Assembly: GCA_036785375.1 (NCBI GenBank)
Contig: JAWMAR010000070.1
Coordinates: 7,130,001-7,194,000 of the forward strand
Length of the DNA: 64,000 nt
Direction: 5' to 3'
From: Leucoraja ocellata
Taxonomy: Eukaryota
The position numbers and the translations under genes were made by a program. The notes under the pieces are model-generated. The model searched no databases and was not told where the DNA came from. It saw nothing but the letters and a program-made list of their open reading frames with translations. Shown here piece after piece: positions 5,308-63,092 of this stretch (position 1 is its first letter; each line of letters starts with the position of its first letter).

Positions 5308-5540
5308 AGAAGGAACTGCAGATGCTGGAAAATCGAAGGTAGACAAAAGTGCTGGAGAAACTCAGCGGGTGCAGCAACATCTATGGAGCAAAGGAAATAG
5401 GCAACGTTTTAGGACGAAACCCTTCCGGGTTTGGCCCGAAACGTTGCCTATTTCCAGAAGGGTTTTGGGACGAAATGTTGCCTATTTCCTTTGCTCTATA
5501 GATGCTGCTGCACCCGCTGAGTTTCTCCAGCATTTTTGTC
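5308..5540. repeat. Palindromic dispersed repeat (Penelope-like terminal-repeat derivative); also ~6650-6895, 11416-11530, 37244-37305, 37860-37957 and duplicates
   Basis: AAATGCTGGAGAAACTCAGCGGGTGCAGCAGCATCTATGGAG...GAAACCC followed by its reverse complement. The family assignment is from memory only. Confidence 0.55.
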
Positions 5541-9093: not shown

Positions 9094-9199
9094 CCGGCGA
9101 TGTTGCCCGTAGTGAGCAAGAGTTGCACAAAGTTCACACCCAACTCAATGCTGGCGTACAAAGAATCACTCACACCGGCTGTCTTCAAGAGAGTTTATT
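9094..9199 (-). terminator. Poly(A) signal AATAAA (9194-9199) plus conserved GT-rich downstream element of A1 (also 41168-41173 for A2 and 57987-57992 for A1')
   Basis: AATAAA followed by TGAAGACAGCCGGTGTGAGTGATTCTTTGT..., a block shared with the type B genes. Confidence 0.55.
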
Positions 9200-9633
9200 T
9201 CCATTAATGATACATTTACCAATGCAAGCACGATCTGTCCCATTGCACTACATTTGCCCCATATCCCCCTAAACCTTTCCCTGTCCCAAGTGTGTATTAA
9301 ATATTGTTACAATTCCCACCCCACCAGACAGTTCTATAAACCCACCGCCCCCTGAGTGAAAATGTTGCCCCTCAGGTTCCTATTAAATCTTGCCCCTCTA
9401 ACCTTAAACTTATGTCCCCCTGGTTCTTGATTCCCGTACCCCAGGTAAAAGATGTTTTGTGTTCACCCCTCTATTCCCCTCATGATGAATTAAGTGACTA
9501 CAATATAGAATGCTGTTGTTGGCCTAAGTATGTGAAGTTTATAATGATGGATGTTACTGTGTGTTTGTGCTGTCCTGCCACTGTCTGTTGCTTCTGTGAC
9601 ATGGGGGGGCCTGTGCTGGGTCAGTGTGAGGTT

Positions 9634-10146
9634 TCACATCACTGTCAGCTTGATATTTAGTCTACATTCCTCTTTGCCAGTGAACCAAGCGCAGGAATAC
9701 ATCCCAACATCACTCTTCTGTAAACCCGTGATGACCAACGAGGCATCCCGTGTCCCATCCACGTTTGTTTCCTTGAACGACCAGCGGCCGGCCCCCCCTG
9801 GATAGGTCGCACCTTTCCCTTTAGTAAACACGGCCAATGTCCCCTTCCCTTTACTCCAGGTGACAGCAAAGTTGCTGGGTCCATCCTTCCCTGTGGGTAC
9901 TTTACAGGGTAGCGTAGCAGAACCACCCTTTGCCGTCACATCCGTGTATTTCATCTTGTTCGCAGCTGGCCTAGCACCGCATTCTGGAGTATCTTGTTTG
10001 TTGACTTGTCGAGGCTCCCGTGCGTTCCACCCGGGCAAGTTTGCTTCCTCTCCCCATTCTCTGGAGATCGGACCTGTTCCAGTTGCGGAGACTTGCCACA
10101 CCATCTCCACAAGGACCATGAATCCTATCCATCTCTGCAGTCCCAT
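9634..10146 (-). CDS. Secreted single V-set Ig-domain protein, type A copy 1 (170 aa, single coding exon)
   Basis: ATG at 10146 follows a polypyrimidine-CAG acceptor. Hydrophobic leader MGLQRWIGFMVLVEMVWQVSA, pro-segment ending NAREPR/QV, and V-set motifs GGSATLPC, VTWSK, DASLVITGLQKSDVGMYSC and CRLNIKLTV. A stop follows directly, with no TM. Confidence 0.85.
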   Translation of the reverse strand: MGLQRWIGFMVLVEMVWQVSATGTGPISREWGEEANLPGWNAREPRQVNKQDTPECGARPAANKMKYTDVTAKGGSATLPCKVPTGKDGPSNFAVTWSKGKGTLAVFTKGKGATYPGGAGRWSFKETNVDGTRDASLVITGLQKSDVGMYSCAWFTGKEECRLNIKLTVM

Positions 10147-10795
10147 GTTCCTGTGGGTGAAACAATGGGTCACCTTATTGCAACTCAGTAGGATTCATGA
10201 TGACATTCCCTGAACCCGCCCAGAGTTGGGGAATCGAGAACCAGAGGACATCGGTTTAAGGCGAGGGGGGGGGGGAAAGATTTAATGGGAAACTGAGGGG
10301 TGACTTTTTTACACAAAGGGTGGAGGGTGTTTGGAACGAGCTGCCGGAAGAGGTAGTTGGGGCAGGTACTATCACAATGATTAAGAAACAGTTAGACAGG
10401 TACATTGATAGGACAGGATTAGAGGGGTAAGGGCCAAACGCAGGCAGGTGGGTCTAGTATTGATGGGACACGTTGGTGGGCGTGGGCAAGTTGGGCCGAA
10501 GGTCTCGCTGTGACTCTATGACTCCATCACTTGTCCCACCCCGGTCATTCCTCCTTCTCCCTGGTCCTGTCTAGCAGAAGGTACAGAAGCTTGAAAGCGC
10601 GCACCACCAGACTCAGGAACAGCTTCTTCCCCTCTGCTATCAGGCTTCTGAACTGGGGGAACAGTGAACAGAGACAATCCCACCCCCATCACTCACAGAC
10701 ACTTGAAGGATCCACAGGGTTGGTTACCAGCTCCGGAGTCTCCACACAGGGTGACGGGGTCGGTCTTGTTCTCATCCCCTGCCATCGCTCGCTCC

Positions 10796-10872
10796 TTTTA
10801 TACCGACTCCCGGCTTCTCCTGCCCCTCATTGTCTGTCCTCACGTACATTCAACCAATCACTGCCTCCCACG
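10796..10872 (-). promoter_or_regulatory. Promoter of gene A1: ERSE (10854-10872) and TATA box (10796-10802)
   Basis: CCAATcactgcctcCCACG on the + strand. TATAAAA on the - strand, ~650 bp upstream of the ATG. Confidence 0.6.
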
Positions 10873-13027
10873 GAGCATTGGCCGGAGTCAGCCGCGACCT
10901 CTCCACCCTCTGCCAAACGTGTCGTTGCATCAGCCGTTAACGTTTAACAAGAACAACGTCATCCCAGCTGCCAGCGGCCAACCAGGCGCCCCACACATCC
11001 TGCTTGTGTCTCCACCACGTCTCGCTTTGGCCACCCATCGGACCAGATGTCCCAGCCACGCCACGTCACCACCACAGCCCTTGGCACCTGCGCTGGTTCC
11101 ACAGTTTATACTCAATCTGAGCCGGCAGCTGGGATGGCGTTGGATCAATTCTTCCTTCCCAACAACCATCAGGCTGTTGAACACGACACGACACTGAGGT
11201 CAACGATGAACGTCTATGGAATGTCCAAGGTTGCACTAATGCCCCTGTCCCACTTAGGAAACCTGAACGGAAACCTCTGGAGACTTAGCGCCCCACCCAA
11301 GGTTTCCGTGCGGTTCACGGAGGTTTTTGTCTGTCTCCCTACCTGCTTCCACTACCTGCAACCTCCGGCAACCACCTGCAACCTCCGGGAACCACCTGCA
11401 ACCTCCGGGAACCTTCGGGACGAAACGTTGCCTATTTCCTTCACTCCATAGATGCTGCTGCACCCGCTGAGTTTCTCCAGCATTTTTGTGTACCTTCGAT
11501 TTTCCAGTATCTGCAGTTTCTTCTTCAACATCAAATAGAACAAGTTGTCCTACAACTTTAGGCTGTGCACGCCACACGAAAGAAGAAGTTGACATGTCTG
11601 TCCCGCCATCCCGGGTATTAACCTGGTGAACCTACGTTGCACTCCCTCAATAGCAAGAATGCCCTTCCTCAAAATGACAGTGAAGTGCTGCCTCTACAGA
11701 GACACCCAATAGACCTGATAGAATGGTATAAAATGATGAGAGGCGTAGATAGCTGAGATAACCTGAAGCAATTTCCCGAAGGCTTTGGAGACGGTGCAGA
11801 AGCAGTTCCCCAGAATGATGTCGGGATCGGAGGTTGTTAGTTATATGGACAGGTTGGATAATCTTGGATTAGTTTCTCTAGAACTTCAGATGTTGAGCGG
11901 AGACCTGACAGAAGGTAATAAAATTCTTAAGGGGTTGGACAGGCTAGATGCAGGAACGTTGTTCCCGATGTTGGGGAAGTCCAGAACTAGGGGTCACAGT
12001 TTAAGGATAAGGGGGAAATCTTTTAGGACCGAGATGAGAAAAACATTTTTCACACAGAGAGTGGTGAATGTGGAATTCTCTGCCACAGAAGGTATTTGAG
12101 GCCAGTTCATTGGCTATATTTAAGAGGGAGTTAGATGTGGCCCTTGTGGCTAAAGGGATCAGGGGGTATGGAGAGAAGGCAGGTACTGGATACTGAGTTT
12201 GATGATCAGCCATGATCATATTGAATGGCGGTGCAGGCTCGAAGGGCCGAATGGCCTCTACTCCTGCACCTATTGTCTATTGTCTACTGTCTATTGTCTA
12301 TTGAGATAGGAAACATTTAAAGATACAAGTGGAGGTAGTTACAATAGTTCAGAGACTTTATCTAAAAAATCTCATGGTCATGCAGGGAATTGAGATTATG
12401 GATCAGGTGCAGGCAGAGGAGATTAGCTGAACTTGGCATCATGTTCAGCACGGACCATGTGGGCCGAAGGGCCTGTTCCTGTGCTGTTCCATGTTCTATG
12501 TTACATAGTCTTCTCAATCACATCTTGAGAAGAACATTTTCCAGAGGTGCCCTGGTACCACCAGTGTGACATTCATTGTATCTGCTGCAGTCAATGAGTG
12601 TGTTGTGTAGACAGCCAGAGGAGAAGATGGGATTTATGTGGAGTTTCATTTTGTAATCATTATTTATTTAATGTCATAGTGTAATAGAGTCATATAGTGA
12701 TACAGTGTGGAAACAGGCCCTTCGGCCCAACTTGCCCACACTGGCCAACATGTCCCAGCTACACTAGTCCCACCTGCCTGTGTTTGGTCCATATCCTTCT
12801 AAATCTGACCTATACCTGTTCCTGTTTAACTGTTTCTTAAACGTCGGGATAGTTTCTGCCTCAACAGCGATGAGTTGACCAGAACGAGACGTGGTGGAGA
12901 CACAAGCAGGATGTGTGGGGCGCCTGGTTGGCCGCTGGCAGCTGGGATGACGTTGTTCTTGTTAAACGTTAACGGCTGATGCAACGACACGTTTGGCAGA
13001 GGGTGGAGAGGTCGCGGCTGACTCCGG

Positions 13028-13113
13028 CCAATGCTCCGTGGGAGGCAGTGATTGGTTGAATGTACGTGAGGGCAGACAATGAGGGGCAGGAGAAGCCGGG
13101 AGTCGGTATAAAA
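13028..13113 (+). promoter_or_regulatory. Promoter of gene B1: CCAAT (13028), ERSE (13037-13055) and TATA (13107-13113)
   Basis: CGTGGgaggcagtgATTGG is the reverse of CCAAT-N9-CCACG. TATAAAA follows. Conserved in all 8 copies. Confidence 0.65.
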
Positions 13114-13134
13114 GGAGCGAGCGATGGCAGGAGA

Positions 13135-13755
13135 TGAGAACAAGACCGACCCCGTCACCCTGTGTGGAGACTCTGGAGCTGGTAACCAACCCTGTGGATC
13201 CTTCAAGTGTCTGTGAGTGATGGGGGTGGGATTGTCTCTGTTCACTGTTCCCCCAGTTCAGAAGCCTGATAGCAGAGGGGAAGAAGCTGTTCCTGAGTCT
13301 GGTGGTGCGCGCTTTCAAGCTTCTGTACCGTCTGCTAGACAGGACCAGGAAGAAGGAGGAATGACTGGGGTGGGACAAGTGGTGGAGTCATAGAGTCACA
13401 GCGAGACCTTCGGCTCAACTTGCCCGCGCCCACCAACGTGTCCCCATCAATACTAGACCCACCTACCTGCGTTTGGCCCTTACCCCCCTAATCCTGTCCT
13501 ATCAATGTACCTGTCTAACTGTTTCTTAATCATTGTGACAGTACCTGCCTCAACTACCTCTTCCGGCAGCTCGTTCCAAACACCCTCCACCCTTTGTGTA
13601 AAAAAGTCACCCCTCAGTTTCCCATGAAATCTTTCCCCCCCTCGCCTTAAACCGATGTCCTCTGGTTCTCGATTCCCCAACTCTGGGCGGGTTCAGGGAA
13701 TGTCATCATGAATCCTACTGAGTTGCAATAAGGTGACCCATTGTTTCACCCACAG
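13135..13755 (+). other. Predicted non-coding exon 1 and ~550-bp intron of gene B1 (donor GTAACC 13182 or GTGAGT 13213; acceptor AG ends 13755)
   Basis: TSS expected ~30 nt after the TATA box. Consensus donors and a polypyrimidine-CAG acceptor 4 nt before the ATG. The intron is filled with LINE/SINE debris. Confidence 0.55.
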
Positions 13756-13759
13756 GAAC

Positions 13760-14299
13760 ATGGGACTGCAGAGATGGATAGGATTCATGGTCCTTGTGGA
13801 GATGGTGTGGCAAGTCTCCGTAACTGGAACAGGTCCGATCTCCAGAGAATGGGGAGAGGAAGCAAACTTGGCCGGGCGGAACGCACGGGCGTATTTCAAA
13901 GTCACCAATAAACCGCTTCCAAGATGCACGAACGAGTCAGATTCTGATGCCATCAGTCATCACCCATCACCGATTAACAAGAAGGTGCTCGTTGCATCTC
14001 TGGGCGGTTCTGTTACGTTGCCATGTAATATATCCATCCTTAAAAATCATTACAGGTTTGTTGAATGGATAAAAGATGGTGTTGAAATTGCCCATTTCCA
14101 TGAGAGAGCGTATGCGCATTATACGGGATCTGATGTTCACTGGAAGTTCGTTGATCACGACGTCTATGTGACTCAGGACGCCACGTTGCTCCTGACAGGT
14201 GTAAAAGAGGAAGATAAAGGGACGTATTCCTGTGTTTGGTCCGTGTATAGAGATAGACCGTTTTGTGAATTATTGATGCAGCTGATGATCTCTCACTGA
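13760..14299 (+). CDS. Secreted single V-set Ig-domain protein, type B copy 1 (179 aa)
   Basis: Same leader as type A. V-set motifs GGSVTLPC, VEWIKDG, DATLLLTGVKEEDKGTYSC and CELLMQLMIS. Acceptor TTGTTTCACCCACAG ends at 13755. Confidence 0.85.
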   Translation: MGLQRWIGFMVLVEMVWQVSVTGTGPISREWGEEANLAGRNARAYFKVTNKPLPRCTNESDSDAISHHPSPINKKVLVASLGGSVTLPCNISILKNHYRFVEWIKDGVEIAHFHERAYAHYTGSDVHWKFVDHDVYVTQDATLLLTGVKEEDKGTYSCVWSVYRDRPFCELLMQLMISH

Positions 14300-15142: not shown

Positions 15143-15259
15143 AATAAACTTTCTTCTGCCTGCCCTGAAGACAGCCGGTGTGAGTGATTCTTTGTACGCC
15201 AGCATTGAGTTGGGTGTGAACTTTGTGCAACTTTTGCTCACTACGGGCAACATCGCCGG
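15143..15259 (+). terminator. Poly(A) signal AATAAA (15143-15148) plus conserved GT-rich element of B1 (also 22278-22283 and 28847-28852)
   Basis: Same ~95-bp block as downstream of the type A genes, although the intervening 3' UTRs are unrelated. Confidence 0.55.
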
Positions 15260-15434
15260 ATTAAAGGGCCTGTCCCACGAGCATGCGACTCCATGCGGCA
15301 AGCGCGACCTAACGTGGTCACTTGAGCCGTACGGCCTCGCGGGGCCGGTCCCACTTTGATCGCCGGAGCCGTATGGAGTTGTGTGGAGCTGGTCCCGACA
15401 TCGCGCGGGGCTCTGAAAAACTGAATATGTTAGG

Positions 15435-19733: not shown

Positions 19734-20173
19734 GGGAGCCTCGATCGCCTCGATGCAGCAGTTTGATTTTAAGCCGCTTGGGCGCTGAAAGGCCCCGCGA
19801 ACGGGACGATTCTGCCCATAGAAAGCGTCTGATAAAGTCCGGAACACAAAACATGGGCGGGGGGGGAATCGTCCCCCACCTCCCAAAGCATAGGGGGACA
19901 TGCCCCCTGTCCCCCCCCCCCAGGATTCCTGCCCATGGCGGTCACGATGTCTCCTTCACCGCCGCAGTCTCGACGCCTCTATGATGGCCGCGAAAAACTC
20001 AGATCTCTGGGTTGACCAGAACGAGACGTGGTGGAGACACAAGCAGGATGTGTGGGGCGCCTGGTTGGCCGCTGGCAGCTGGGATGACGTTGTTCTTGTT
20101 AAACGTTAACGGCTGATGCAACGACACATTTGGCAGAGGGTGGAGAGGTCGCGGCTGACTCCGGCCAATGCTC

Positions 20174-20250
20174 CGTGGGAGGCAGTGATTGGTTGAATGT
20201 ACGTGAGGGCAGACAATGAGGGGCAGGAGAAGCCGGGAGTCGGTATAAAA
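20174..20250 (+). promoter_or_regulatory. Promoter of B2 (ERSE 20174-20192, TATA 20244-20250)
   Basis: Same cassette as B1. Confidence 0.6.
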
Positions 20251-20897
20251 GGAGCGAGCGATGGCAGGAGATGAGAACAAGACCGACCCCGTCACCCTGT
20301 GTGGAGACTCCGGAGCTGGTAACCAACCCTGTGGATCCTTCAAGTGTCTGTGAGTGATGGGGGTGGGATTGTCTCTGTTCACTGTTCCCCCAGTTCAGAA
20401 GCCTGATAGCAGAGGGGAAGAAGCTGTTCCTGAGTCTGGTGGTGCGCGCTTTCAAGCTTCTGTACCTTCTGCTAGACAGGACCAGGGAGAAGGAGGAATG
20501 ACAGGGGTGGGACAAGTGATGGAGTCATAGAGTCACAGCGAGACCTTCGGCCCAACTTGCCCGCGCCCACCAACGTGTCCCCATCAATACTAGACCCACC
20601 TGCCTGCGTTTGGCCCTTACCCCTCTAATCCTGTCCTATCAATGTACCTGTCTAACTGTTTCTTAATCATTGTGATAGTACCTGCCTCAACTACCTCTTC
20701 CGGCAGCTCGTTCCAAACACCCTCCACCCTTTGTGTAAAAAAAGTCACCCCTCAGTTTCCCATGAAATCTTTCCCCCCCTCACCTTAAACCGATGTCCTC
20801 TGGTTCTCGATTCCCCAACTCTGGGCGGGTTCAGGGAATGTCATCATGAATCCTACTGAGTTGCAATAAGGTGACCCATTGTTTCACCCACAGGAAC

Positions 20898-21434
20898 ATG
20901 GGGCTGCAGAGATGGATAGGATTCATGGTCCTTGTGGAGATGGTGTGGCAAGTCTCCGTAACTGGAACAGGTCCGATCTCCAGCGAATGGGGAGAGGAAG
21001 CAAACTTGGCCGGGTGGAATGCACGGGCCCCTCGGCAAGTCACCGATGAAACGCTTCCAAGATGCACGGACAAGTCAGATTCTGATGCCATCAGTCATCA
21101 CCTATCAACGATTAACAAGAAGGTGCTCGTTGCATCTCTGGGTGGTTCTGTTACGTTGCCATGTAATGTATCCAACGTTGACAATAGTCCCACGGTTACA
21201 TGGAAAAAAGATGGTGTTGAAATTGCCTATTTCCATAGTAGAGTGCATGAGCGTTATAAGGGATCTGATGTTCACTGGAAGTTCGTGCAACGAAACGTCC
21301 TTTGGGAACAGGACGCCACGTTGCTCCTGACAGGTGTAAAAGAGGAAGATAAAGGGACGTATTCCTGTGTTTGGATCAAGTATCGTCAGAAACCGTTTTG
21401 TGAATTATTGATGCAGCTGATGATCTCTCACTGA
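20898..21434 (+). CDS. Secreted single V-set Ig-domain protein, type B copy 2 (178 aa)
   Basis: Paralogue of 13760..14299 with near-identical frameworks and different loops. NARAPR/QV site present. Confidence 0.85.
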   Translation: MGLQRWIGFMVLVEMVWQVSVTGTGPISSEWGEEANLAGWNARAPRQVTDETLPRCTDKSDSDAISHHLSTINKKVLVASLGGSVTLPCNVSNVDNSPTVTWKKDGVEIAYFHSRVHERYKGSDVHWKFVQRNVLWEQDATLLLTGVKEEDKGTYSCVWIKYRQKPFCELLMQLMISH

Positions 21435-24400: not shown

Positions 24401-26675
24401 AGGCTTGAATCGGCCCGTTCGCGGGGCCTTTCATCGCCCGACGGGGGTTTCAACATTGGTATTGATGTGGATAGAGAACTGGCTGGCAGACAGAAAGCAA
24501 AGAGTAGGAGTAAACGGGTCCTTTTCAGAATGGCAGGCAGTGACTAGTGGGGTACTGCAAGACTCAGTGCTGGGACCCCAGCTATTTACGATATATATTA
24601 ATGATCTGGATGAGGGAGTTGAATGCAACATCTCCAAGTTTGCAGATGGGGGGCAGTGTTAGCTGTGAGGAGGATGCTAGGAGGCTGCAAGGTGACTTGG
24701 ATATGTTGGGTGAGTGGGCAAATGCATGGAAGATGCAGTATAATGTGGATAAATGTGAAGTTATCCATTTTGGTGTAAAAAACAGGAAAGTAGATTATTA
24801 TCTGAATGGTGGCCGATTAGGAAAAGGGGAGATGCAACGAGACCTGGGTGTCATGGTACACCAGTCATTAAAAGTGGGCATGCAGGTGCAGCAGGCAGTG
24901 AAGAAAGAGAATGGTATGTTAACATTCATAGCAAAAGGATTTGAGTATAAGAGCAGGGAGGTTCTACTACAGTTGTACAGAGTCTTGGTGAGACCACACC
25001 TGGAGTATTGCGTACAGTTTTGGTCTCCTAATCTGAGGAAGGACATTATTGCCATAGAGGGAGTACAGAGAAAGTTCACCAGACTGATTCCTGGGATGTC
25101 AGGACTTTATGGCATACTGAGTTGGATGATCAGTATAATCATATTAAATGGCAGTGCAGGCTCGAAGGGCCGAATGGCCTACTCCTGCACCTATTTTCTA
25201 TGTTTCTATGGGAGCCTCGATCGCCTCGATGCAGCAGTTTGATTTTAAGCCGCTCGGGCGCTGAAAGGCCCCGCGAACGGGACGATTCTGCCCATAGAAA
25301 GCGTCTGATAAAGTCCGGAACACAAAACATGGGCGGGGGGGGAATCGTCCCCCACCTCCCAAAGCATAGGGAGACGTGCCCCATGTCCCCCCCCAGGATT
25401 TCCGCCCATGGCGGTCACGATATCTCCTTCACCGCTGCAGTCTCGACGCCTCTTTGATGGCCGCGAAAAACTCCATGTGGGGCGTAGAAGGCCGGATCGG
25501 ATAAAGCGGAAAGTTAATTTCAATGAGGTCCTCCCCCTGACGTGACTGGAAGCTGCTGGTCGACCACTCCCCCTTTGTGACATCACTCGAAGGGGGGTGA
25601 AGGTTTGCCGTTTAATAAGTTGGTTTTCACTATTTTTAAAACGCTATAACTTGTGAACTACAGCATGTAATGTGAAGTGGAGCAGTTTATTTTGTCAAAG
25701 GGGTTAATGTGATTAATAATGTGCGGAGGAGGGGAGGAGGAGAGGGGAGAGAAGGAGGAGGGTGTAGACGAGGGGGAGGGAGTGTAAGAGACTCGCCTGC
25801 GCAGTTGTGGGGTATGGGTGAGTGGTGGAATATTACGTTGGGGGGACGGGTACATCGCAAAGGAATCTCATTTAGATTTCTTGGGAGGAGGCTTTTCATT
25901 GTGGGGGGTGGAATTGCTGAGAGGTTTCATTTACTCCTTATTTATAAAATAATTACGATTGTGGGGAGGGGTGGGTTGGGGGCGGGGGCTCCCCGTTTCA
26001 TTGTGGGGGGGTGGAGTAAGAGAGAGGTTTCATTTCCAGAATTTTCCTTGCTAGGGGATGGGGTGAGTATTGTGGGGTATGGGTGAGTGGTGGAATATTA
26101 CGTTGGGGGAACGGGGCCCAACGGGTCCCACTTGGTCTAGTTATCATTATTTATTTAATGTTTCACGTTTACACCAATCTCTCCACCACCACGAACAAGC
26201 AGCACAAGACGCGACAAGACAGACACCATTTTATGCAGATGCCGAGAAGTGTGATCAGCTCTGGCTGAACAACTAATCTTGTGTGTGGATTCGATAAGCA
26301 GAAGATTTAATGTCATAGTGTTATACAGTCATAGAGTGATACAGCATGGAAACAGGCCCTTTGGCCCAACTTGCCCACATTGGACAACATGTCCCAGCTA
26401 CACTAGTCCCACCTGTCCACGTTTGGTCCATATCCCTCCAAATCTGACCTATCCCTGTTCCTGTCTAGCAGTTTCTTAAACGTCGGGATAGTTTCTGCCT
26501 CAACTGCGATGGGTTGACCAGAACGAGACGTGGTGGAGACACAAGCAGGATGTGTGGGGCGCCTGGTTGGCCGCTGGCAGCTGGGATGACGTTGTTCTTG
26601 TTAAACGTTAACGGCTGATGCAACGACACGTTTGGCAGAGGGTGGAGAGGTCGCGGCTGACTCCGGCCAATGCTC

Positions 26676-26752
26676 CGTGGGAGGCAGTGATTGGTTGAAT
26701 GTACGTGAGGGCAGACAATGAGGGGCAGGAGAAGCCGGGAGTCGGTATAAAA
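26676..26752 (+). promoter_or_regulatory. Promoter of B3 (ERSE 26676-26694, TATA 26746-26752)
   Basis: Same cassette as B1. Confidence 0.6.
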
Positions 26753-27399
26753 GGAGCGAGCGATGGCAGGAGATGAGAACAAGACCGACCCCGTCACCCT
26801 GTGTGGAGACTCCGGAGCTGGTAACCAACCCTGTGGATCCTTCAAGTGTCTGTGAGTGATGGGGGTGGGATTGTCTCTGTTCACTGTTCCCCCAGTTCAG
26901 AAGCCTGATAGCAGAGGGGAAGAAGCTGTTCCTGAGTCTGGTGGTGCGCGCTTTCAAGCTTCTGTACCTTCTGCTAGACAGGACCAGGGAGAAGGAGGAA
27001 TGACCGGGGTGGGACAAGTGATGGAGTCATAGAGTCACAGCGAGACCTTCGGCCCAACTTGCCCGCGCCCACCAACGTGTCCCCATCAATACTAGACCCA
27101 CCTGCCTGCGTTTGGCCCTTACCCCTCTAATCCTGTCCTATCAATGTACCTGTCTAACTGTTTCTTAATCATCGTGATAGTACCTGCCTCAACTACCTCT
27201 TCCGGCAGCTCGTTCCAAACACCCTCCACCCTTTGTGTAAAAAAGTCACCCCTCAGTTTTCCATGAAATCTTTCCCCCCCCTCGCCTTAAACCGATGTCC
27301 TCTGGTTCTCGATTCCCCAACTCTGGGCGGGTTCAGGGAATGTCATCATGAATCCTACTGAGTTGCAATAAGGTGACCCATTGTTTCACCCACAGGAAC

Positions 27400-27936
27400 A
27401 TGGGACTGCAGAGATGGATAGGATTCATGGTCCTTGTGGAGATGGTGTGGCAAGTCTCCGCAACTGGAACAGGTCCGATCTCCAGAGAATGGGGAGAGGA
27501 AGCAAACTTGGCCGGGCGGAACGCACGGGCCCCTCGGCAAGTCACCAATGAACCGCTTCCAAGATGCATGAACGAGTCAGATTCTGATGCCATCAGTCAT
27601 CACCTATCAACGATTAACAAGAAGGTGCTCGTTGCATCTCTGGGTGGTTCTGTTACTTTGCCATGTAATGTATCCAACGTTGACAATAGTCCCGAGGTTA
27701 CATGGAATAAAGATGGTGTTGAAATTGCCTATTTCCATAGTAGAGTGCATGAGCGTTATACAGGATCTGATGTTCACTGGAAGTTCGTGCAACGAAACGT
27801 CCTTTGGGAACAGGACGCCACGTTGCTCCTGACAGGTGTAAAAGAGGAAGATAAAGGGACGTATTCCTGTGTTTGGATCAAGTATCGTCAGAAACCGGTT
27901 TGTGAATTATTGATGCAGCTGATGATCTCTCACTGA
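27400..27936 (+). CDS. Secreted single V-set Ig-domain protein, type B copy 3 (178 aa)
   Basis: Close paralogue of copy B2 with an intact ORF and all four Cys. Confidence 0.85.
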   Translation: MGLQRWIGFMVLVEMVWQVSATGTGPISREWGEEANLAGRNARAPRQVTNEPLPRCMNESDSDAISHHLSTINKKVLVASLGGSVTLPCNVSNVDNSPEVTWNKDGVEIAYFHSRVHERYTGSDVHWKFVQRNVLWEQDATLLLTGVKEEDKGTYSCVWIKYRQKPVCELLMQLMISH

Positions 27937-32239: not shown

Positions 32240-34336
32240 TTCAGCCTCGTGCAAGCAGAAACACTCCAAAAGGACAAGCTGTCCCAAGGACTCTTCCAGA
32301 AGATCGACAAAGGACCTCGTGGGGGGCTGCCTTTTATAAGTCCCCGAACCTTGAGGGGCCGAACTACATAGGGGTGGTCCCTTTACAATCCAATCAAACA
32401 TATTAATTACATCAGTATATTATAGACAGTTTCCCAGACCACTAACAGATCCCATACATTGTTTCAGGAGAAGCTTCTGGAAGATGCTAACTTAACTTGA
32501 ATAATGCAACATTTACCCTGGAATTCAAACAAACCCGCCAGGGCTCAACACTTTAGCCAATCAACAAACAGTAGGATAACTGCCTGGCACATTATATACA
32601 ATATTTACAATGCTGTTACAGTAATCCAATCAACCATGCATTTACACTTCATTGGAGGTCATCTCCTTGCACGGAAATCGGCATCAAAACATGGGGGGCC
32701 ACAATTCCATGGCAGCACACATGCACACGCATGCATGCGGCACACACGCGAGGATTCGGCCATGGGCCCTGTGGACAGTAACATCGGGAGCTGACTTGGT
32801 TGGTGACCGACTCCGAACTCCAGCAACAGCAGCTTCGTCCGCCCCGAACCGTGGGGCTTGAATCGGCCCGTTCGCGGGGCCTTTCATCGCCCGGCAGGGG
32901 TTTCAACATTGGCATTGATGTGGATAGAGAACTGGCTGGTCTCTTAATCTGAGGAAAGACATTATTGCCATAGAGAGAGTACAGAGAAAGTTCACCAGAC
33001 TGATTCCTGGGATGTCAGGACTTTATGGCATACTGAGTTGGATGATCAGTATAATCATATTAAATGGCAGTGCAGGCTCGAAGGGCCGAATGGCCTACTC
33101 CTGCACCTATTTTCTATGTTTCTATGGGAGCCTCGATCGCCTCGATCGCCTCGATGCAGCAGTTTGATTATAAGCCGCTTGGGCGCTGAAAGGCCCCGCG
33201 AACGGGACGATTCTGCCCATAGAAAGCGTCTGATAAAGTCCGGAACACAAAACATGGGTGGGGGGGAATCGTCCCCCACCTCCCAAAGCATAGGGAGACG
33301 TGCCCCCTGTTCCCCCCCCCAGGATTTCCGCCCATGGCGGTCACGATATCTCCTTCACCGCCGCAGTCTCGACGCCTCTTTGATGGCCGCGAAAAACCCC
33401 ATGTGGGGCGTAGAAGGCCGGGTCGGATAAAGCGGAATGTTAATTTCAATGAGGTCCTCCCCCTGACATCACTGGAAGCTGCTGGTCGACCACTCCCCCT
33501 TTGTGACATCACTCGAAGCGGGGTGAAGGTTTGCCGTTTAATAAGTTGGTTTTCACTATTTTTAAAACGCTATAACTTGTGAACTACAGCATGTAATGTG
33601 AAGTGGAGCAGTTTATTTTGTCAAAGGGGTTAATGTGATTAATAATGTGCGGAGGAGGGGAGGAGGAGAGGGGAGAGAAGGAGGAGGGTAAAGACGAGGG
33701 GGAGGGAGTGTAAGAGACTCGCCTGCGCAGTTGTGGGGTATGGGTGAGTGGTGGAATATTACGTTGGGGGAACGGGACCCAACGGGTCCCACTTGGTCTA
33801 GTTATCATTATTTATTTAATGTTTCACGTTTACACCAATCTCTCCACCACCACGAACAAGCAGCACAAGACGCGACAAGACAGACACCATTTTATGCAGA
33901 TGCCGAGAAGTGTGATCAGCTCTGGCTGAACAACTAATCTTGTGTGTGGATTCGATAAGCAGAAGATTTAATGTCATAGTGTTATACAGTCATAGAGTGA
34001 TACAGCATGGAAACAGGCCCTTCGGCCCAACTTGCCCACATTGGACAAAATGTCCCAGCTACACTAGTCCCACCTGTCCACGTTTGGTCCATATCCCTCC
34101 AAATCTGACCTATACCTGTTCCTGTCTAGCTGTTTCTTAAACGTCGGGATAGTTTCTGCCTCAACTGCGATGAGTTGACCAGAACGAGACGTGGTGGAGA
34201 CACAAGCAGGATGTGTGGGGCGCCTGGTTGGCCGCTGGCAGCTGGGATGACGTTGTTCTTGTTAAACGTTAACGGCTGATGCAACGACACGTTTGGCAGA
34301 GGGTGGAGAGGTCGCGGCTGACTCCGGCCAATGCTC

Positions 34337-34413
34337 CGTGGGAGGCAGTGATTGGTTGAATGTACGTGAGGGCAGACAATGAGGGGCAGGAGAAGCCGGG
34401 AGTCGGTATAAAA
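34337..34413 (+). promoter_or_regulatory. Promoter of the pseudogene (ERSE 34337-34355, TATA 34407-34413)
   Basis: Same cassette as B1. Confidence 0.55.
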
Positions 34414-35061
34414 GGAGCGAGCGATGGCAGGAGATGAGAACAAGACCGACCCCGTCACCCTGTGTGGAGACTCCGGAGCTGGTAACCAACCCTGTGGATC
34501 CTTCAAGTGTCTGTGAGTGATGGGGGTGGGATTGTCTCTGTTCACTGTTCCCCCAGTTCAGAAGCCTGATAGCAGAGGGGAAGAAGCTGTTCCTGAGTCT
34601 GGTGGTGCGCGCTTTCAAGCTTCTGTACCGTCTGCTAGACAGGACCAGGGAGAAGAAGGAATGACTGGGGTGGGACAAGTGATGGAGTCATAGAGTCACA
34701 GCGAGACCTTCGGCCCAAGTTGCCCGCGCCCACCAACGTGTCCCCATCAATACTAGACCCACCTGCCTGCGTTTGGCCCTTACCCCTCTAATCCTGTCCT
34801 ATCAATGTACCTGTCTAACTGTTTCTTAATCATTGTGATAGTACCTGCCTCAACTACCTCTTCCGGCAGCTCGTTCCAAACACCCTCCACCCTTTATGTA
34901 AAAAAGTCACCCCTCAGTTTCCCATTAAATCTTTCCCCCCCCCTCGCCTTAAACCGATGTCCTCTGGTTCTCGATTCCCCAACTCTGGGCGGGTTCAGGG
35001 AATGTCATCATGAATCCTACTGAGTTGCAATAAGGTGACCCATTGTTTCACCCACAGGAAC

Positions 35062-35616
35062 ATGGGACTGCAGAGATGGATAGGATTCATGGTCCTTGTG
35101 GAGATGGTGTGGCAAGTCTCCGCAACTGGAACAGGTCCAGAATGGTCTCCAGAGAATGGGGAGAGGAAGCAAACTTGGCCGGGCGGAACGCACGGGCCCC
35201 TCAGCAAGTCAACAATGAACCGCTTCCAAGATGCACGAATGACTTAGATTCTGACAGTGATCACGGTGCATCGAATAGCGATATTAGGCTCATTGCATCT
35301 CCGGGTGATTCTTTGACGCTGCCCTGTAAAATATCCAAAGATTACAAACAACTCTGGTTAGTTCAGTGGAGACAAAACGATGTTGAAATTAACAATTATA
35401 ATGAGAAAACGTTTGATGAATATACGGGATCTGATGTCCGCTGGATATTTGTGGATCTAGAATTCCTTTGGGACTGGGACGGCTCGTTGCTCCTGAGGCA
35501 TAAAAGAGAAAGATGAAGGGATATATTCCTGTGTTTCGTTCATTGATACTCATGTGTTATGTGAAGAATTGGCCCAGCTGACAATCCTCCCAGTGATTCA
35601 GCAGGGCCCGACCTAG
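35062..35616 (+). pseudogene. Frameshifted divergent B-related V-set gene (acidic variant)
   Basis: Same leader. Net +5 nt at ~35139 (GGTCC AGAATGG TCTCC vs GGTCC GA TCTCC) and a 2-nt loss at ~35496 break the frame. Remnant motifs GDSLTLPC, VQWRQND, DGSLLL and DEGIYSC...LCEELAQLTI. Confidence 0.8.
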
Positions 35617-41607: not shown

Positions 41608-42123
41608 TCACTTCACTGTCAGCTTGATATTTAGTCTACATTCCTTTTGGCCAGTGAACCAAGAGCAGGAATATATCCCAATATCAGTCTCGAGTAAACC
41701 TATGATGACCAACGAGGCATCCCGTGTCCCATCCACGTTTGTATTCATGAACCTCCAGCGGCCGACCCCCCCTGGATAAGTCGCTCCTTTCCCTTTAGTA
41801 AACACGCCCAGTATCCCGCTCCCTTTACTCCAGGTGATCATAAAATCCGCGGGTCCAGTCTTCCCTGTGGGTACTTTACAGGGTAGCGTAGCAGAACCAC
41901 CCTTGCGTGCCGTCACATCCGTGAATTTCATCTTGGTCGCAGCTGGCTTAGCACCGCATTCTGGAGAACTTTGTTTTTTGACTTGTCGAGGCTCCCGTGC
42001 GTTCCACCCGGGCAAGTTTGCTTCCTCTCCCCATTCTCTGGAGATCGGACCTGTTCCAGTTGCGGAGACTTGCCACACCATCTCCACAAGGACCATGAAT
42101 CCTATCCATCTCTGCAGTCCCAT
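41608..42123 (-). CDS. Secreted single V-set Ig-domain protein, type A copy 2 (171 aa)
   Basis: Paralogue of 9634..10146 with GGSATLPC, ITWSK, DASLVIIGLLETDIGIYSC and CRLNIKLTVK. Confidence 0.85.
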   Translation of the reverse strand: MGLQRWIGFMVLVEMVWQVSATGTGPISREWGEEANLPGWNAREPRQVKKQSSPECGAKPAATKMKFTDVTARKGGSATLPCKVPTGKTGPADFMITWSKGSGILGVFTKGKGATYPGGVGRWRFMNTNVDGTRDASLVIIGLLETDIGIYSCSWFTGQKECRLNIKLTVK

Positions 42124-42812
42124 GTTCCTGTGGGTGAAACAATGGGTCACCTTATTGCAACTCAGTAGGATTCATGATGACATTCCCTGAAGCTGCTGCC
42201 ACCACACTGGGCAATGTCACTGTGCAGCTTCTACAGCTCCCGCCTGGTTTAGTTTAAGTTGCTTTGACCTGTCGTGGACCAACAACATTGAAGTGGCAGC
42301 CAAGGAGGCACACCAATGCATCGACTTCCTCAGAGACAGAGGAAATACGACAAGTCTCCAATGTCTCTTAGAAACTTCTACAGATGCACCACAGAGAGCA
42401 GACTGTGGGGTTGCATCACAGCTTGGTTTGGGAACAGCTCTGAGCCCAAGACCACAAGATATTGCAGAGTTGTGGATGGAGCCCAGTCCATCACACAGAC
42501 CACACTCCCCACCAGTGACTCCATCTACAACCAAAAAAATCAAAGTCTTGTCCCACCCCGGGCATTCCTCCTTCTCCCTGGTCCTGTCTAGCAGACGGTA
42601 CAGAAGCTTGAAAGCGCACACCACCTGACTCAGGAACAGCTTCTTCCCCTCTGCTATCAGGCTTCTGAACTGGGGGAACAGTGAACAGAGACAATCCCAC
42701 CCCCATCACTCACAGACACTTGAAGGATCCACAGGGTTGGTTACCAGCTCCGGAGTCTCCACACAGGGTGACGGGGTCGGTCTTGTTCTCATCTCCTGCC
42801 ATCACTCGCTCC

Positions 42813-42889
42813 TTTTATACCGACTCCCGGCTTCTCCTGCCCCTCATTGTCTGCCCTCACGTACATTCAACCAATCACTGCCTCCCACG
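42813..42889 (-). promoter_or_regulatory. Promoter of A2 (ERSE 42871-42889, TATA 42813-42819)
   Basis: Same cassette in reverse orientation. Confidence 0.6.
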
Positions 42890-43094
42890 GAGCATTGGCC
42901 GGAGTCAGCCGCGACCTCTCCACTCTCTGCCAAACGTGTCGTTGCATCAGCCGTTAACGTTTAACAAGAACAACGTCATCCCAGCTGCCAGCGGCCAACC
43001 AGGCGCCCCACACATCCTGCTTGTGTCTCCACCACGTCTCGCTTTGGCCACCCATCGGACCAGATGTCCCAGCCACGCCACGTCACCACCACAG

Positions 43095-58426: not shown

Positions 58427-58939
58427 TCACATCACTGTCAGCTTGGTATTTAGTCTACATTCCTCTTTGCCAGTGAACCAAGCGCAGGAATACATCCCAA
58501 CATCACTCTTCTGTAAACCCGTGATGACCAACGAGGCATCCCGTGTCCCATCCACGTTTGTTTCCTTGAACGACCAGCGGCCGGCCCCCCCTGGATAGGT
58601 CGCACCTTTCCCTTTAGTAAACACGGCCAATGTCCCCTTCCCTTTACTCCAGGTGACAGCAAAGTTGCTGGGTCCATCCTTCCCTGTGGGTACTATACAG
58701 GGTAGCGTAGCAGAACCACCCTTTGCCGTCACATCCGTGAATTTCATCTTGTTCGCAGCTGGCCTAGCACCGCATTCTGGAGTATCTTGTTTGTTGACTT
58801 GTCGAGGCTCCCGTGCGTTCCACCCGGGCAAGTTTGCTTCCTCTCCCCATTCTCTGGAGATCGGACCTGTTCCAGTTGCGGAGACTTGCCACACCATCTC
58901 CACAAGGACCATGAATCCTATCCATCTCTGCAGTCCCAT
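58427..58939 (-). CDS. Secreted single V-set protein, type A copy 1' (segmental duplicate of 9634..10146)
   Basis: Differs from A1 by 3 aa (Y>F, K>I, I>T). Offset 48793. Confidence 0.85.
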   Translation of the reverse strand: MGLQRWIGFMVLVEMVWQVSATGTGPISREWGEEANLPGWNAREPRQVNKQDTPECGARPAANKMKFTDVTAKGGSATLPCIVPTGKDGPSNFAVTWSKGKGTLAVFTKGKGATYPGGAGRWSFKETNVDGTRDASLVITGLQKSDVGMYSCAWFTGKEECRLNTKLTVM

Positions 58940-59588
58940 GTTCCTGTGGGTGAAACAATGGGTCACCTTATTGCAACTCAGTAGGATTCATGATGACATT
59001 CCCTGAACCCGCCCAGAGTTGGGGAATCGAGAACCAGAGGACATCGGTTTAAGGCGAGGGGGGGGGGGAAAGATTTAATGGGAAACTGAGGGGTGACTTT
59101 TTTACACAAAGGGTGGAGGGTGTTTGGAACGAGCTGCCGGAAGAGGTAGTTGGGGCAGGTACTATCACAATGATTAAGAAACAGTTAGACAGGTACATTG
59201 ATAGGACAGGATTAGAGGGGTAAGGGCCAAACGCAGGCAGGTGGGTCTAGTATTGATGGGACACGTTGGTGGGCGTGGGCAAGTTGGGCCGAAGGTCTCG
59301 CTGTGACTCTATGACTCCATCACTTGTCCCACCCCGGTCATTCCTCCTTCTCCCTGGTCCTGTCTAGCAGAAGGTACAGAAGCTTGAAAGCGCGCACCAC
59401 CAGACTCAGGAACAGCTTCTTCCCCTCTGCTATCAGGCTTCTGAACTGGGGGAACAGTGAACAGAGACAATCCCACCCCCATCACTCACAGACACTTGAA
59501 GGATCCACAGGGTTGGTTACCAGCTCCGGAGTCTCCACACAGGGTGACGGGGTCGGTCTTGTTCTCATCTCCTGCCATCGCTCGCTCC

Positions 59589-59665
59589 TTTTATACCGAC
59601 TCCCGGCTTCTCCTGCCCCTCATTGTCTGCCCTCATGTACATTCAACCAATCACTGCCTCCCACG
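59589..59665 (-). promoter_or_regulatory. Promoter of A1' (ERSE 59647-59665, TATA 59589-59595)
   Basis: Same cassette as A1. Confidence 0.6.
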
Positions 59666-61827
59666 GAGCATTGGCCGGAGTCAGCCGCGACCTCTCCACC
59701 CACTGCCAAACGTGTCGTTGCATCAGCCGTTAACGTTTAACAAGAACAACGTCATCCCAGCTGCCAGCGGCCAACCAGGCGCCCCACACATCCTGCTTGT
59801 GTCTCCACCACGTCTCGCTTTGGCCACCCATCGGACCAGATGTCCCAGCCACGCCACGTCACCACCACAGCCCTTGGCACCTGCGCTGGTTCCACAGTTT
59901 ATACTCAATCTGAGCCGGCAGCTGGGATGGCGTTGGATCAATTCTTCCTTCCCAACAACCATCAGGCTGTTGAACACGACACGACACTGAGGTCAACGAT
60001 GAACGTCTATGGAATGTCCAAGGTTGCACTAATGCCCCTGTCCCACTTAGGAAACCTGAACGGAAACCTCTGGAGACTTAGCGCCCCACCCAAGGTTTCC
60101 GTGCGGTTCACGGAGGTTTTTGTCTGTCTCCCTACCTGCTTCCACTACCTGCAACCTCCGGCAACCACCTGCAACCTCCGGCAACCACCTGCAACCTCCG
60201 GGAACCTTCGGGACGAAACGTTGCCTATTTCCTTCACTCCATAGATGCTGCTGCACCCGCTGAGTTTCTCCAGCATTTTTGTGTACCTTCGATTTTCCAG
60301 TATCTGCAGTTTCTTCTTCAACATCAAATAGAACAAGTTGTCCTACAACTTTAGGCTGTGCACGCCACACGAAAGAAGAAGTTGACATGTCTGTCCCGCC
60401 ATCCCGGGTATTAACCTGGTGAACCTACGTTGCACTCCCTCAATAGCAAGAATGCCCTTCCTCAAAATGACAGTGAAGTGCTGCCTCTACAGAGACACCC
60501 AATAGACCTGATAGAATGGTATAAAATGATGAGAGGCGTAGATAGCTGAGATAACCTGAAGCAATTTCCCGAAGGCTTTGGAGACGGTGCAGAAGCAGTT
60601 CCCCAGAATGATGTCGGGATCGGAGGTTGTTAGTTATATGGACAGGTTGGATAATCTTGGATTAGTTTCTCTAGAACTTCAGATGTTGAGCGGAGACCTG
60701 ACAGAAGGTAATAAAATTCTTAAGGGGTTGGACAGGCTAGATGCAGGAACGTTGTTCCCGATGTTGGGGAAGTCCAGAACTAGGGGTCACAGTTTAAGGA
60801 TAAGGGGGAAATCTTTTAGGACCGAGATGAGAAAAACATTTTTCACACAGAGAGTGGTGAATGTGGAATTCTCTGCCACAGAAGGTATTTGAGGCCAGTT
60901 CATTGGCTATATTTAAGAGGGAGTTAGATGTGGCCCTTGTGGCTAAAGGGATCAGGGGGTATGGAGAGAAGGCAGGTACTGGATACTGAGTTTGATGATC
61001 AGCCATGATCATATTGAATGGCGGTGCAGGCTCGAAGGGCCGAATGGCCTACTCCTGCACCTATTGTCTATTGTCTACTGTCTATTGTCTATTGAGATAG
61101 GAAACATTTAAAGATACAAGTGGAGGTAGTTACAATAGTTCAGAGACTTTATCTAAAAAATCTCATGGACATGCAGGGAATTGAGATTATGGATCAGGTG
61201 CAGGCAGAGGAGATTAGCTGAACTTGGCATCATGTTCAGCACGGACCTTGTGGGCCGAAGGGCCTGTTCCTGTGCTGTTCCATGTTCTATGTTACATCAT
61301 CTTCTCAATCACATCTTGAGAAGAACATTTTCCAGAGGTGCCCAGGTACCACCAGTGTGACATTCATTGTATCTGCTGCAGTCAATGAGTGTGTTGTGTA
61401 GACAGCCAGAGGAGAAGATGGGATTTATGTGGAGTTTCATTTTGTAATCATTATTTATTTAATATCATAGTGTAATAGAGTCATAGAGTGATACAGCGTG
61501 GAAACAGGCCCTTCGGCCCAACTTGCCCACACTGGCCAACATGTCCCAGCTACACTAGTCCCACCTATCCACGTTTGGTCCATATCCTTCTAAATCTGAC
61601 CTATACCTGTTCCTGTTTAACTGTTTCTTAAACGTTGGGATAGTTTCTGCCTCAACTGCGATGAGTTGACCAGAACGAGACGTGGTGGAGACACAAGCAG
61701 GATGTGTGGGGCGCCTGGTTGGCCGCTGGCAGCTGGGATGACGTTGTTCTTGTTAAACGTTAACGGCTGATGCAACGACACGTTTGGCAGAGGGTGGAGA
61801 GGTCGCGGCTGACTCCGGCCAATGCTC

Positions 61828-61904
61828 CGTGGGAGGCAGTGATTGGTTGAATGTACGTGAGGGCAGACAATGAGGGGCAGGAGAAGCCGGGAGTCGGTAT
61901 AAAA
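61828..61904 (+). promoter_or_regulatory. Promoter of B1' (ERSE 61828-61846, TATA 61898-61904)
   Basis: Same cassette as B1. Confidence 0.6.
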
Positions 61905-62552
61905 GGAGCGAGCGATGGCAGGAGATGAGAACAAGACCGACCCCGTCACCCTGTGTGGAGACTCCGGAGCTGGTAACCAACCCTGTGGATCCTTCAAGTG
62001 TCTGTGAGTGATGGGGGTGGGATTGTCTCTGTTCACTGTTCCCCCAGTTCAGAAGCCTGATAGCAGAGGGGAAGAAGCTGTTCCTGAGTCTGGTGGTGCG
62101 CGCTTTCAAGCTTCTGTACCTTCTGCTAGACAGGACCAGGGAGAAGGAGGAATGACCGGGGTGGGACAAGTGATGGAGTCATAGAGTCACAGCGAGACCT
62201 TCGGCCCAACTTGCCCGCGCCCACCAATGTGTCCCCATCAATACTAGACCCACCTGCCTGCGTTTGGCCCTTACCCCTCTAATCCTGTCCTATCAATGTA
62301 CCTGTCTAACTGTTTCTTAATCATTGTGATAGTACCTGCCCCAACTACCTCTTCCGGCAGCTCGTTCCAAACACCCTCCACCCTTTGTGTAAAAAAGTCA
62401 CCCCTCAGTTTCCCATGAAATCTTTCCCCCCCCCTCGCCTTAAACCGATGTCCTCTGGTTCTCGATTCCCCAACTCTGGGCGGGTTCAGGGAATGTCATC
62501 ATGAATCCTACTGAGTTGCAATAAGGTGACCCATTGTTTCACCCACAGGAAC

Positions 62553-63092
62553 ATGGGACTGCAGAGATGGATAGGATTCATGGTCCTTGTGGAGATGGTG
62601 TGGCAAGTCTCCGCAACTGGAACAGGTCCGATCTCCAGAGAATGGGGAGAGGAAGCAAACTTGGCCGGGCGGAACACACGGGCGTATTTCAAAGTCACCA
62701 ATGAACCGCTTCCAAGATGCACGAACGAGTCAGATTCTGATGCCATCAGTCATCACCCATCACCGATTAACAAGAAGGTGCTCGTTGCATCTCTGGGTGG
62801 TTCTGTTACGTTGCCATGTAATATATCCATCCTTAAAAATCATTACAGGGTTGTTCAATGGAAAAAAGATGGTGTTCAAATTGCCAGTTTCCATGAGAGA
62901 GCGTATGCGCGTTATACGGGGTCTGATGTTCACTGGAAGTTCGTTGATCACGACGTCTATATGGCTCAGGACGCCACGTTGCTCCTGACAGGTGTAAAAG
63001 AGGAAGATACAGGGACGTATTCCTGTGTTTGGTTCCATTATAGAGATAGACCGTTTTGTGAATTATTGATGCAGCTGATGATCTCTCACTGA
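62553..63092 (+). CDS. Secreted single V-set protein, type B copy 1' (segmental duplicate of 13760..14299)
   Basis: Offset 48793 from B1. Intact ORF with 11 aa differences in the V domain. Confidence 0.85.
   Translation: MGLQRWIGFMVLVEMVWQVSATGTGPISREWGEEANLAGRNTRAYFKVTNEPLPRCTNESDSDAISHHPSPINKKVLVASLGGSVTLPCNISILKNHYRVVQWKKDGVQIASFHERAYARYTGSDVHWKFVDHDVYMAQDATLLLTGVKEEDTGTYSCVWFHYRDRPFCELLMQLMISH

Follow-up and report, generated by a model that had tools for sequence, protein, structure and literature searches.

How do neighboring genes come to share an almost identical front kilobase when the mature proteins that they encode have only about a third of their residues in common? The question is raised by two head-to-head genes, A1 and B1, in a 64,000-nucleotide (nt) stretch of a Leucoraja ocellata contig (JAWMAR010000070.1, positions 7,130,001 to 7,194,000 of the forward strand; hereafter the window). 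Both genes encode a small protein with a single immunoglobulin (Ig) V-set domain, and an earlier note on this DNA had described their promoters, first exons, introns and leaders as one inverted, near-identical cassette kept uniform by concerted evolution or gene conversion. We find that the cassette extends to every gene copy in the window and that repeated gene conversion among all of these copies, to which we assign a probability of about 85%, most likely keeps the 1-kb front ends alike. The features of the A1/B1 pair are as follows (aa, amino acids; ORF, open reading frame; pI, isoelectric point).

10017..11040, minus strand: A1 5' cassette, consisting of upstream region, TATA-like box, exon 1, intron and leader codons 1-43
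12868..13889, plus strand: B1 5' cassette, inverted near-copy of that of A1 (97.4%)
10802-10796, minus strand, and 13107-13113, plus strand: TATA-like boxes of A1 and B1
10783..10785, minus strand, and 13124, plus strand: in-frame upstream ATG in exon 1 of A1 and B1, 11-17 nt behind the TATA-like box
10151..10696, minus strand: A1 intron, GT..AG, whose splicing yields the C-L-N-M junction of the Leucoraja RefSeq models
13213..13755, plus strand: B1 intron, GT..AG
9634..10146, minus strand: A1 ORF, 170 aa, in which a predicted signal peptide is followed by a pro-like segment that contains RxxR, a single V-set domain and the stop; mature pI 9.5, basic
13760..14299, plus strand: B1 ORF, 179 aa, with the same layout; mature pI 6.5, near neutral

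The shared cassette and its edges

The near-copy proposed for 10005-11024 and 12885-13905 is real, and its coordinates were correct to within about 15 bases. By self-BLAST, A1 from 11040 down to 10017 aligns with B1 from 12868 up to 13889 over 1,026 columns at 97.4% identity, with 21 mismatches and 3 gaps, and the longest exact run begins at 11024/12885, the very edge that had been given. The anatomy is likewise as described, with promoter, exon 1, intron and leader all inside the tract once the TATA-like boxes, GT..AG introns and ORFs are located. The sliding-window comparison that had been suggested gives a clear step: identity per 50-nt window is 0.90-1.0 inside the tract, 0.26-0.32 directly upstream and 0.32-0.68 downstream.

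The claim that identity collapses abruptly near the RxxR site holds for A1 and B1, for which MaxChi places the breakpoint at nucleotide 130 of the coding sequence (CDS; codon 43/44), directly after the invariant Arg43. The two genes differ at 17 of 1,003 sites before this point and at 179 of 374 after it, and none of 1,000 permutations was as extreme. It does not hold for the family as a whole, in which the 3' edge is graded from codon 38 to about codon 48: fixed A/B differences are found from codon 38 onward, while a P-R-Q-V stretch at codons 45-48 is still common to the A types and B2/B3. The position of this edge may be set where divergence blocks strand exchange, or where selection purges tracts that enter the mature domain, rather than by the cleavage site itself. 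The 5' edge is abrupt and adjoins different upstream repeats, and the flanks beyond it stay type-specific, A-type at A copies and B-type at B copies, with three diagnostic sites at the edge (26523 and 11027 are such A/B-diagnostic positions).

All gene copies carry the cassette

The cassette had been presented as a feature of the head-to-head pair, but it precedes all eight gene copies in the window, A1-A3 on the minus strand and B1-B5 on the plus strand. Over the 28 possible pairs, cassettes differ at 4-15 sites, and A1-B1, with 15 of 985, is the joint maximum. Conversion restricted to the head-to-head partners is ruled out by this ranking, A1 and B1 being jointly the least similar of all pairs. 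The other six copies are these.

20008..21434, plus strand: B2 gene, cassette and ORF 20898-21434
26507..27936, plus strand: B3 gene, ORF 27400-27936
34168..35598, plus strand: B4 pseudogene, two frameshifts
41608..43057, minus strand: A2 gene, ORF 41608-42123, with an alternative, probably older, middle part of the intron
58427..59833, minus strand: A3 gene, within a duplicated block, sister of A1
61659..63092, plus strand: B5 gene, positional sister of B1

B4 belongs to a more divergent B subtype, its mature DNA being 71% identical to that of B1, and its reading frame is broken twice, in the leader by an insertion of 5 nt and again within the V domain (35062-35598).

Evidence for repeated gene conversion

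Between A and B copies the cassettes differ at only 5-15 of about 985 sites (7-12 of 676 for A2), or 0.5-1.5% and up to 1.8% in the alignable part of A2, against a proportion of synonymous differences (pS) of 0.46-0.52 in the mature domains; the cassette/mature contrast for A1-B1 has a Fisher p of 2e-41. Among the 676 cassette sites that align in all eight copies there is no fixed A/B difference, compared with 125 in 333 mature sites, and the idea that promoter, exon 1, intron and leader evolve in concert beside a diversifying mature domain is well supported by these counts. The A/B split itself must be old, since the mature-domain tree separates A and B clades with full support (100/100), both holding Leucoraja genes, and a Rhinoraja gene is nested within B.

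The intron supplies a rare-event marker. It contains the following retroposon pieces (LINE and SINE, long and short interspersed elements).

10531..10660, plus strand, antisense in the intron: LINE 3'-end remnant, presumably Rex1-like by its motif, very high-copy in four sequencing runs
10215..10530, no strand assigned: CR1/SINE-type repeat piece, in the intron of seven of the eight copies
42191-42547: longer LINE piece of A2, in place of the CR1-type replacement

The CR1-type replacement is present in A1, A3 and B1-B5 and missing from A2, so that it groups A1/A3 with all B genes against their own relative A2, with which A1 shares 78% identity in the mature domain. The state seen in A2 is probably the older one and the replacement derived. 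As about 450 of the 545 intron bases are high-copy retroposon pieces, selection is unlikely to hold this intron at 98% identity.

Leader variants, too, are swapped across types in Leucoraja, the B-type protein P0006 having an A-like variant and the A-type P0007 a B-like one. The B5 cassette is nearer to those of A1/A3 (5 differences) and B3 (4) than to that of its positional sister B1 (12). Even the pseudogene takes part: the B4 cassette has 9-13 differences from other copies (13 of 986 against B1), while 20 of about 214 sites differ in its 3' flank (p 3e-8 versus the cassette), which is only 85-87% identical to those of other B genes. Congruent trees with proportional divergence, which had been named as the result that would speak against concerted evolution, were not found: the intron replacement and the leader swaps give the tract and the mature domain different histories, and an approximately unbiased (AU) test rejects the mature-domain topology for the cassette with p 0.027.

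Comparison between species points the same way. The Rhinoraja leader has 4 differences from the common leader in residues 1-37, whereas the 13 leaders from the window and Leucoraja, of both types, have 0-2. At promoter site 10823/26725 all eight window copies have G, and contigs assembled from reads have T at all depth in three organisms (B, C and D). Another four changes are fixed in organism C, where the contigs that carry them have about 8 times the depth of the A-type mature contig. Within the bounded tract, paralogues are thus closer than orthologues at one site fixed across A and B, at four sites of organism C and in one Rhinoraja leader. In runs X1 and X6, from two organisms, the region 26470-26885 is also matched at low depth by a more diverged promoter relative, which contains a strand switch (26518/26649); it is perhaps a paralogue that has gone from the homogenized set.

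Several results weigh against this reading. The Kishino-Hasegawa (KH) and Shimodaira-Hasegawa (SH) tests do not reject the mature topology (0.119), the few variable cassette sites making the test weak, and supports in the cassette tree are 36-75. Only one site is fixed across A and B yet different in other species, and contig depth is a rough guide, not a true copy number, on contigs that do not connect a cassette with either type of domain. Inside a subfamily, the cassette does not exceed the 3' flank in uniformity (A1-A2, 9 of 676 versus 11 of 627, p 0.65), and conversion is therefore needed only for A versus B and for B4.

Could selection alone explain the pattern, with purifying selection on promoter, intron and leader, extreme positive selection on the mature domain and no exchange of sequence? 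Within subfamilies, where both flanks are about 98% identical and the proportion of nonsynonymous differences (pN) is 13-17%, recent duplication plus selection can indeed explain the data, and these genomes change slowly, the promoter differing between species at 2-6 listed sites in 416 nt. We nevertheless regard it as very improbable, given that about 50% of the synonymous sites in the mature part differ between A and B, that most of their 3' flank is unalignable, that an intron of retroposon debris and a pseudogene are homogenized too, that a derived intron replacement crosses the A/B tree and that promoter data from read contigs suggest grouping of cassettes by species. A single recent event that placed a copied promoter-leader cassette before a foreign V exon, or a cassette that is itself a mobile element, would account for the abrupt 5' edge against different upstream repeats and for a break near the domain boundary. 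Either reading is about as improbable, for A, B and the electric-ray gene described below share four cysteines and the whole layout, leader included, and in Leucoraja, which has both types, exon 1 and leader are again the same for A and B. Promoter depth, moreover, is about 8-10 times that of a single mature contig in three of four runs (the fourth, which is shallow, gives about 3 times), whereas the intron repeats are thousands-fold deeper; run X1, with promoter depths of 875-1350, has no mature-domain baseline.

Repeated unequal crossing-over and duplication, spreading the cassette through hybrid genes, is the alternative that we take most seriously, albeit as an unlikely one. The array has been remodeled by duplication (1-14598 recurs at 46222-63391), and the B genes are mosaic at codons 44-70. 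A single crossover would swap the flanks, which instead remain type-specific up to the three diagnostic edge sites, and a crossover between inverted A and B copies would invert the spacer. The chance that the near-identity is an artefact of assembly or polishing is close to negligible: were the 99.3% block an uncollapsed haplotype (0.35% background), A1/A3 and B1/B5 would be alleles, but the cassette copies have private differences, A and B types again have exon 1 and leader in common in an independent Leucoraja assembly, and in contigs built from the reads of four organisms the promoter is collapsed, with several-fold depth.

Gene conversion would have acted as follows. An old duplication would have given A and B, the array would then have grown in tandem, and non-crossover exchange would repeatedly rewrite the still-similar front kilobase of each copy, the A and B mature exons escaping because they are too diverged for exchange and likely under diversifying selection. 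That the exchange went by conversion rather than crossover is suggested by the upstream flanks, which A and B have each retained. Uniform regulation had been offered as the reason for homogenization; because the pseudogene and the retroposon-filled intron are homogenized as well, it may instead be a neutral by-product. Co-regulation of A and B is still predicted, as their promoters are the same, and the co-expression that had been deduced for them is plausible.

Nature of the encoded proteins

The mature A and B domains had been thought to share motif-level similarity only. They are true homologues, with 30-35% amino-acid identity, 51-55% nucleotide identity and four shared cysteines. The proteins share the layout of A1 and B1, from the predicted signal peptide to the single V-set domain, and a minimal RxxR is found in all 14 proteins compared, at residues 40-43 and/or 43-46. 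The stop follows 1-3 residues past the G strand in the seven intact window genes, and database homologues likewise end shortly past the V domain. There is no transmembrane stretch in the 14 proteins, the best 19-residue Kyte-Doolittle (KD) mean after residue 46 being 0.55-1.69. The products are thus likely secreted and probably cleaved after Arg43 or Arg46. Against secretion stands a signal peptide that is moderately hydrophobic (best 19-residue KD mean 1.07-1.29), and against cleavage the full furin motif R-X-K/R-R, which is found in none of the 14.

Searches with A1 or B2 return the same seven clusters, six from Leucoraja erinacea and one from Rhinoraja longicauda, all called 'uncharacterized', and a profile search brings in one more protein, from the electric ray Narcine bancroftii. 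It has a single domain, bears the automatic name nectin-1-like and aligns with the family over both leader and domain (hhalign probability 99.6). Among the best 150 matches of a search against 50% representatives, 148 are multi-domain Ig proteins that score by summed repeats, and the other two, P0003 and P0072, each match once over the full length. In Pfam, V-set ranks first or second for four of four proteins. In the PDB, by sequence, PVR is the top match for A1 and for the family profile, and all 20 matches of the Narcine member are PVR or nectins. Two results fit this assignment less well: with B2, multi-domain DCC/ROBO chains outrank PVR, and Foldseek with the A1 model puts CAR first with the nectins close behind. 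The B1 model was of low confidence (mean predicted local distance difference test score, pLDDT, 55) and was left out of the fold search, and the ESM Atlas gave generic V-set clusters only.

Rearranging antigen receptors (Ig, TCR and IgNAR V) have an intron between leader and V and a separate J with F/W-G-x-G, whereas here a single exon encodes leader, V and G strand, and F/W-G-x-G is absent from the alignment. V domains of the MDIR/CD300/TREM type have a second disulfide in the C-C' region and a membrane anchor; the skate proteins have no cysteine in C-C' and no transmembrane segment, their extra cysteine pair consisting of an N-terminal C56 and C161 in the G strand. We conclude that this family of small proteins with one V domain, present in skates and an electric ray, is likely derived from nectin/PVR domain 1. 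Its members have 'uncharacterized' or automatic names only, and no paper describing them was found in the open-licence PMC and bioRxiv literature.

A 202-aa family member on a 900-nt Logan contig crosses the exon 1-exon 2 junction. This contig must be spliced, because CDS plus intron would need about 1150 nt, and it points indirectly to transcription of the family in some organism. Either of two Met codons may be the start. The first, the in-frame ATG of exon 1, is separated from the TATA-like box by only 11-17 nt; a start there would put 31 extra residues before the signal peptide. The Leucoraja models and the 202-aa member begin at this ATG, while the second Met is conserved in Narcine and is the start of the Rhinoraja model. 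The upstream ATG is too near the TATA-like box for a standard start, yet it is included in the spliced contig. An Rfam search of 9000-15400 gave no match.

Selection on the mature domain

The mature domains are likely under diversifying selection. Within subfamilies pN/pS exceeds 1 in six of six pairs, at 1.5-2.75 in five of them, with three nonsynonymous and no synonymous differences in the sixth, and is significantly raised in two (B1-B2, p 0.005; B1-B3, p 0.035). In three of four pairs pN is greater than divergence of the 3' flank. Between B1 and B5 there are 17 differences in 411 mature sites, compared with 26 in 7,346 sites in the quiet part of the duplicated block, although the whole B1/B5 neighborhood is raised to about 1% divergence. 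On the other side, four of the six pN/pS tests are not significant, and the pairs are non-independent and were counted simply by the Nei-Gojobori method (NG86).

With positions mapped from the A1 model, the variable sites of five close B proteins fall in the BC, C'C'', DE and FG loops and in strands C and C', and strands A', D and E are invariant. This face (GFCC') is the one with which nectins and CAR engage their partners and to which viruses bind. When P0003 and P0159 are compared with B1, B2 and B3 over residues 44-72, the B genes are mosaic between leader and V domain, with variants shuffled differently in Leucoraja.

Possible function and pairing

As to their role, the products could be soluble recognition or decoy proteins for a fast-changing partner, most likely from a pathogen or parasite, bound through the GFCC' face; we hold this view tentatively, at somewhat less than even odds. 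Reproductive proteins (of seminal, clasper or oviducal secretion) or cationic antimicrobial proteins are nearly as probable. Rapid change of a secreted, lineage-restricted family fits reproductive proteins as well, and the close A types are strongly basic (pI 9.1-9.8, net charge +5 to +12; P0007, pI 7.8), as an antimicrobial role would favor. Most B types, in contrast, are neutral to acidic (pI 5.7-7.2; P0004, 9.4, is basic), and the closest relatives of the family work as receptors in adhesion and immunity and are used by viruses as well.

A more speculative view concerns the two types together. PVR-family dimers are described, in the part of PMC10486284 that deals with them, as joined through a lock, AX6G, and a key, T(Y/F)P. 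In Narcine the protein contains AX6G as well as an exact T(Y/F)P. The final Gly of the lock is present in all eight A types (AX6G in four, GX6G in four) and in none of nine B types, and a Tyr occupies the key position in seven of the nine B types, where none of the eight A types has an aromatic residue. It is conceivable, though improbable, that A and B are halves of a secreted nectin-like heterodimer and that an ancestor with both motifs gave rise to a basic lineage with the lock (A) and a mostly neutral-to-acidic one with the key (B). Re-copied promoters and leaders would then keep A and B produced and secreted together, and A-by-B pairing would provide skates with a combinatorial set of soluble V-V recognition molecules encoded in the germline. 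A cartilaginous fish would in that case have a combinatorial V-domain system that works without rearrangement. Against such pairing, the same face is hypervariable, the key Thr and Pro are mostly lost (an exact T(Y/F)P is found in none of the 17 skate proteins) and a single lock-key pair would remain.

Other features of the window

Downstream of the genes, A and B do not align from the stop codon to about 40 nt before AATAAA. Directly behind this signal lies a second shared tract.

9094..9186, minus strand: A1 3' tract, 93 nt, directly behind AATAAA; one difference from B1
15167..15259, plus strand: B1 3' tract, 93 nt, directly behind AATAAA

Copies are found at six genes (A1, B1, B2 at 22302, B3 at 28871, A2 at 41160 and A3 at 57979) with a single fixed A/B difference; none was found at B4, and that of B5 would fall outside the window. 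Conversion, selection for a role as a poly(A) downstream element, or descent from a long terminal repeat could each account for the tract.

The recurrence of 1-14598 at 46222-63391 (99.3-99.4% identity) defines a duplication unit of 46-49 kb, and A3 and B5 sit in the block that repeats 3304-14598 at 99.3%. Either a genuine tandem duplication or an uncollapsed haplotype could explain the block. Its second copy carries an extra near-intact LINE (ORF 49530-51764). The window DNA as a whole is vertebrate and retroposon-rich, with a 31-nt minisatellite (9.8 copies, 91% match) at 29792-30096 downstream of B3 and, directly downstream of A2 at 39874-41005, a broken reverse-transcriptase fragment that we take from its motifs to be Gypsy-like.

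Comparison with known systems

Proteins of the nectin/PVR family have further Ig domains, a transmembrane segment and a cytoplasmic tail. The skate family has in common with domain 1 of nectins and PVR (CD155) the V-set fold and the best sequence matches, but its proteins are single-domain, without transmembrane segment or tail, and have a pro-like segment and an extra cysteine pair, and the A and B types each retain only part of the nectin/PVR motif pair. The family thus resembles nectin domain 1 in fold and sequence and falls outside the nectin/PVR family on architecture.

Conotoxins and frog skin peptides combine a conserved signal and pro region with a fast-changing mature part, and the likeness to toxin and antimicrobial peptide families that had been drawn for this locus stands as far as gene design goes: leaders are 91-100% identical, against 30-35% between A and B mature parts. 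It does not extend to protein kinship, the mature part being an Ig domain of 125-135 aa whose nearest relative is nectin/PVR domain 1.

Among the multigene Ig superfamily (IgSF) families of fish, SITR and skate MDIR are the ones covered in the portion of PMC3031540 relevant here, which describes SITR as genome-encoded and soluble. According to that account SITR and MDIR are related to CD300/TREM/pIgR and SITR has two Ig domains, whereas the present family matches PVR/nectin best; no protein named MDIR was among our homologue-search matches, and no direct comparison with MDIR sequences was made.

The closest parallel in gene pattern is SSSGP-1 of the Hessian fly, for which PMC2955719 describes a tandem cluster with an inverted copy, conserved promoter, untranslated region, intron and signal peptide and a diversified mature region, and proposes positive selection together with concerted homogenization. 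The gene pattern is the same in the skate family. SSSGP-1, as characterized there, comprises unrelated insect salivary proteins, whereas the skate product is an IgV domain, the skate A/B split predates two skate families, and A and B share only the 93-nt tract on the 3' side. SIGLEC11 and SIGLEC16 form a head-to-head IgSF pair whose upstream region and 5' exons have been homogenized in each lineage by gene conversion to 97-99%, in the description given by the relevant part of PMC5701461. There the V-set ligand-binding exon lies within the converted tract, whereas in the skate family the V domain is the excluded part, all copies take part and the head-to-head partner is not preferred.

The process at this locus is therefore a known one, seen in SSSGP and SIGLEC11/16, in an undescribed gene family. 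With a mapped boundary, a rare-event marker in the intron replacement and a pseudogene control, it offers a clean vertebrate case that suits tests of how divergence and selection halt conversion tracts at the edge of a domain.

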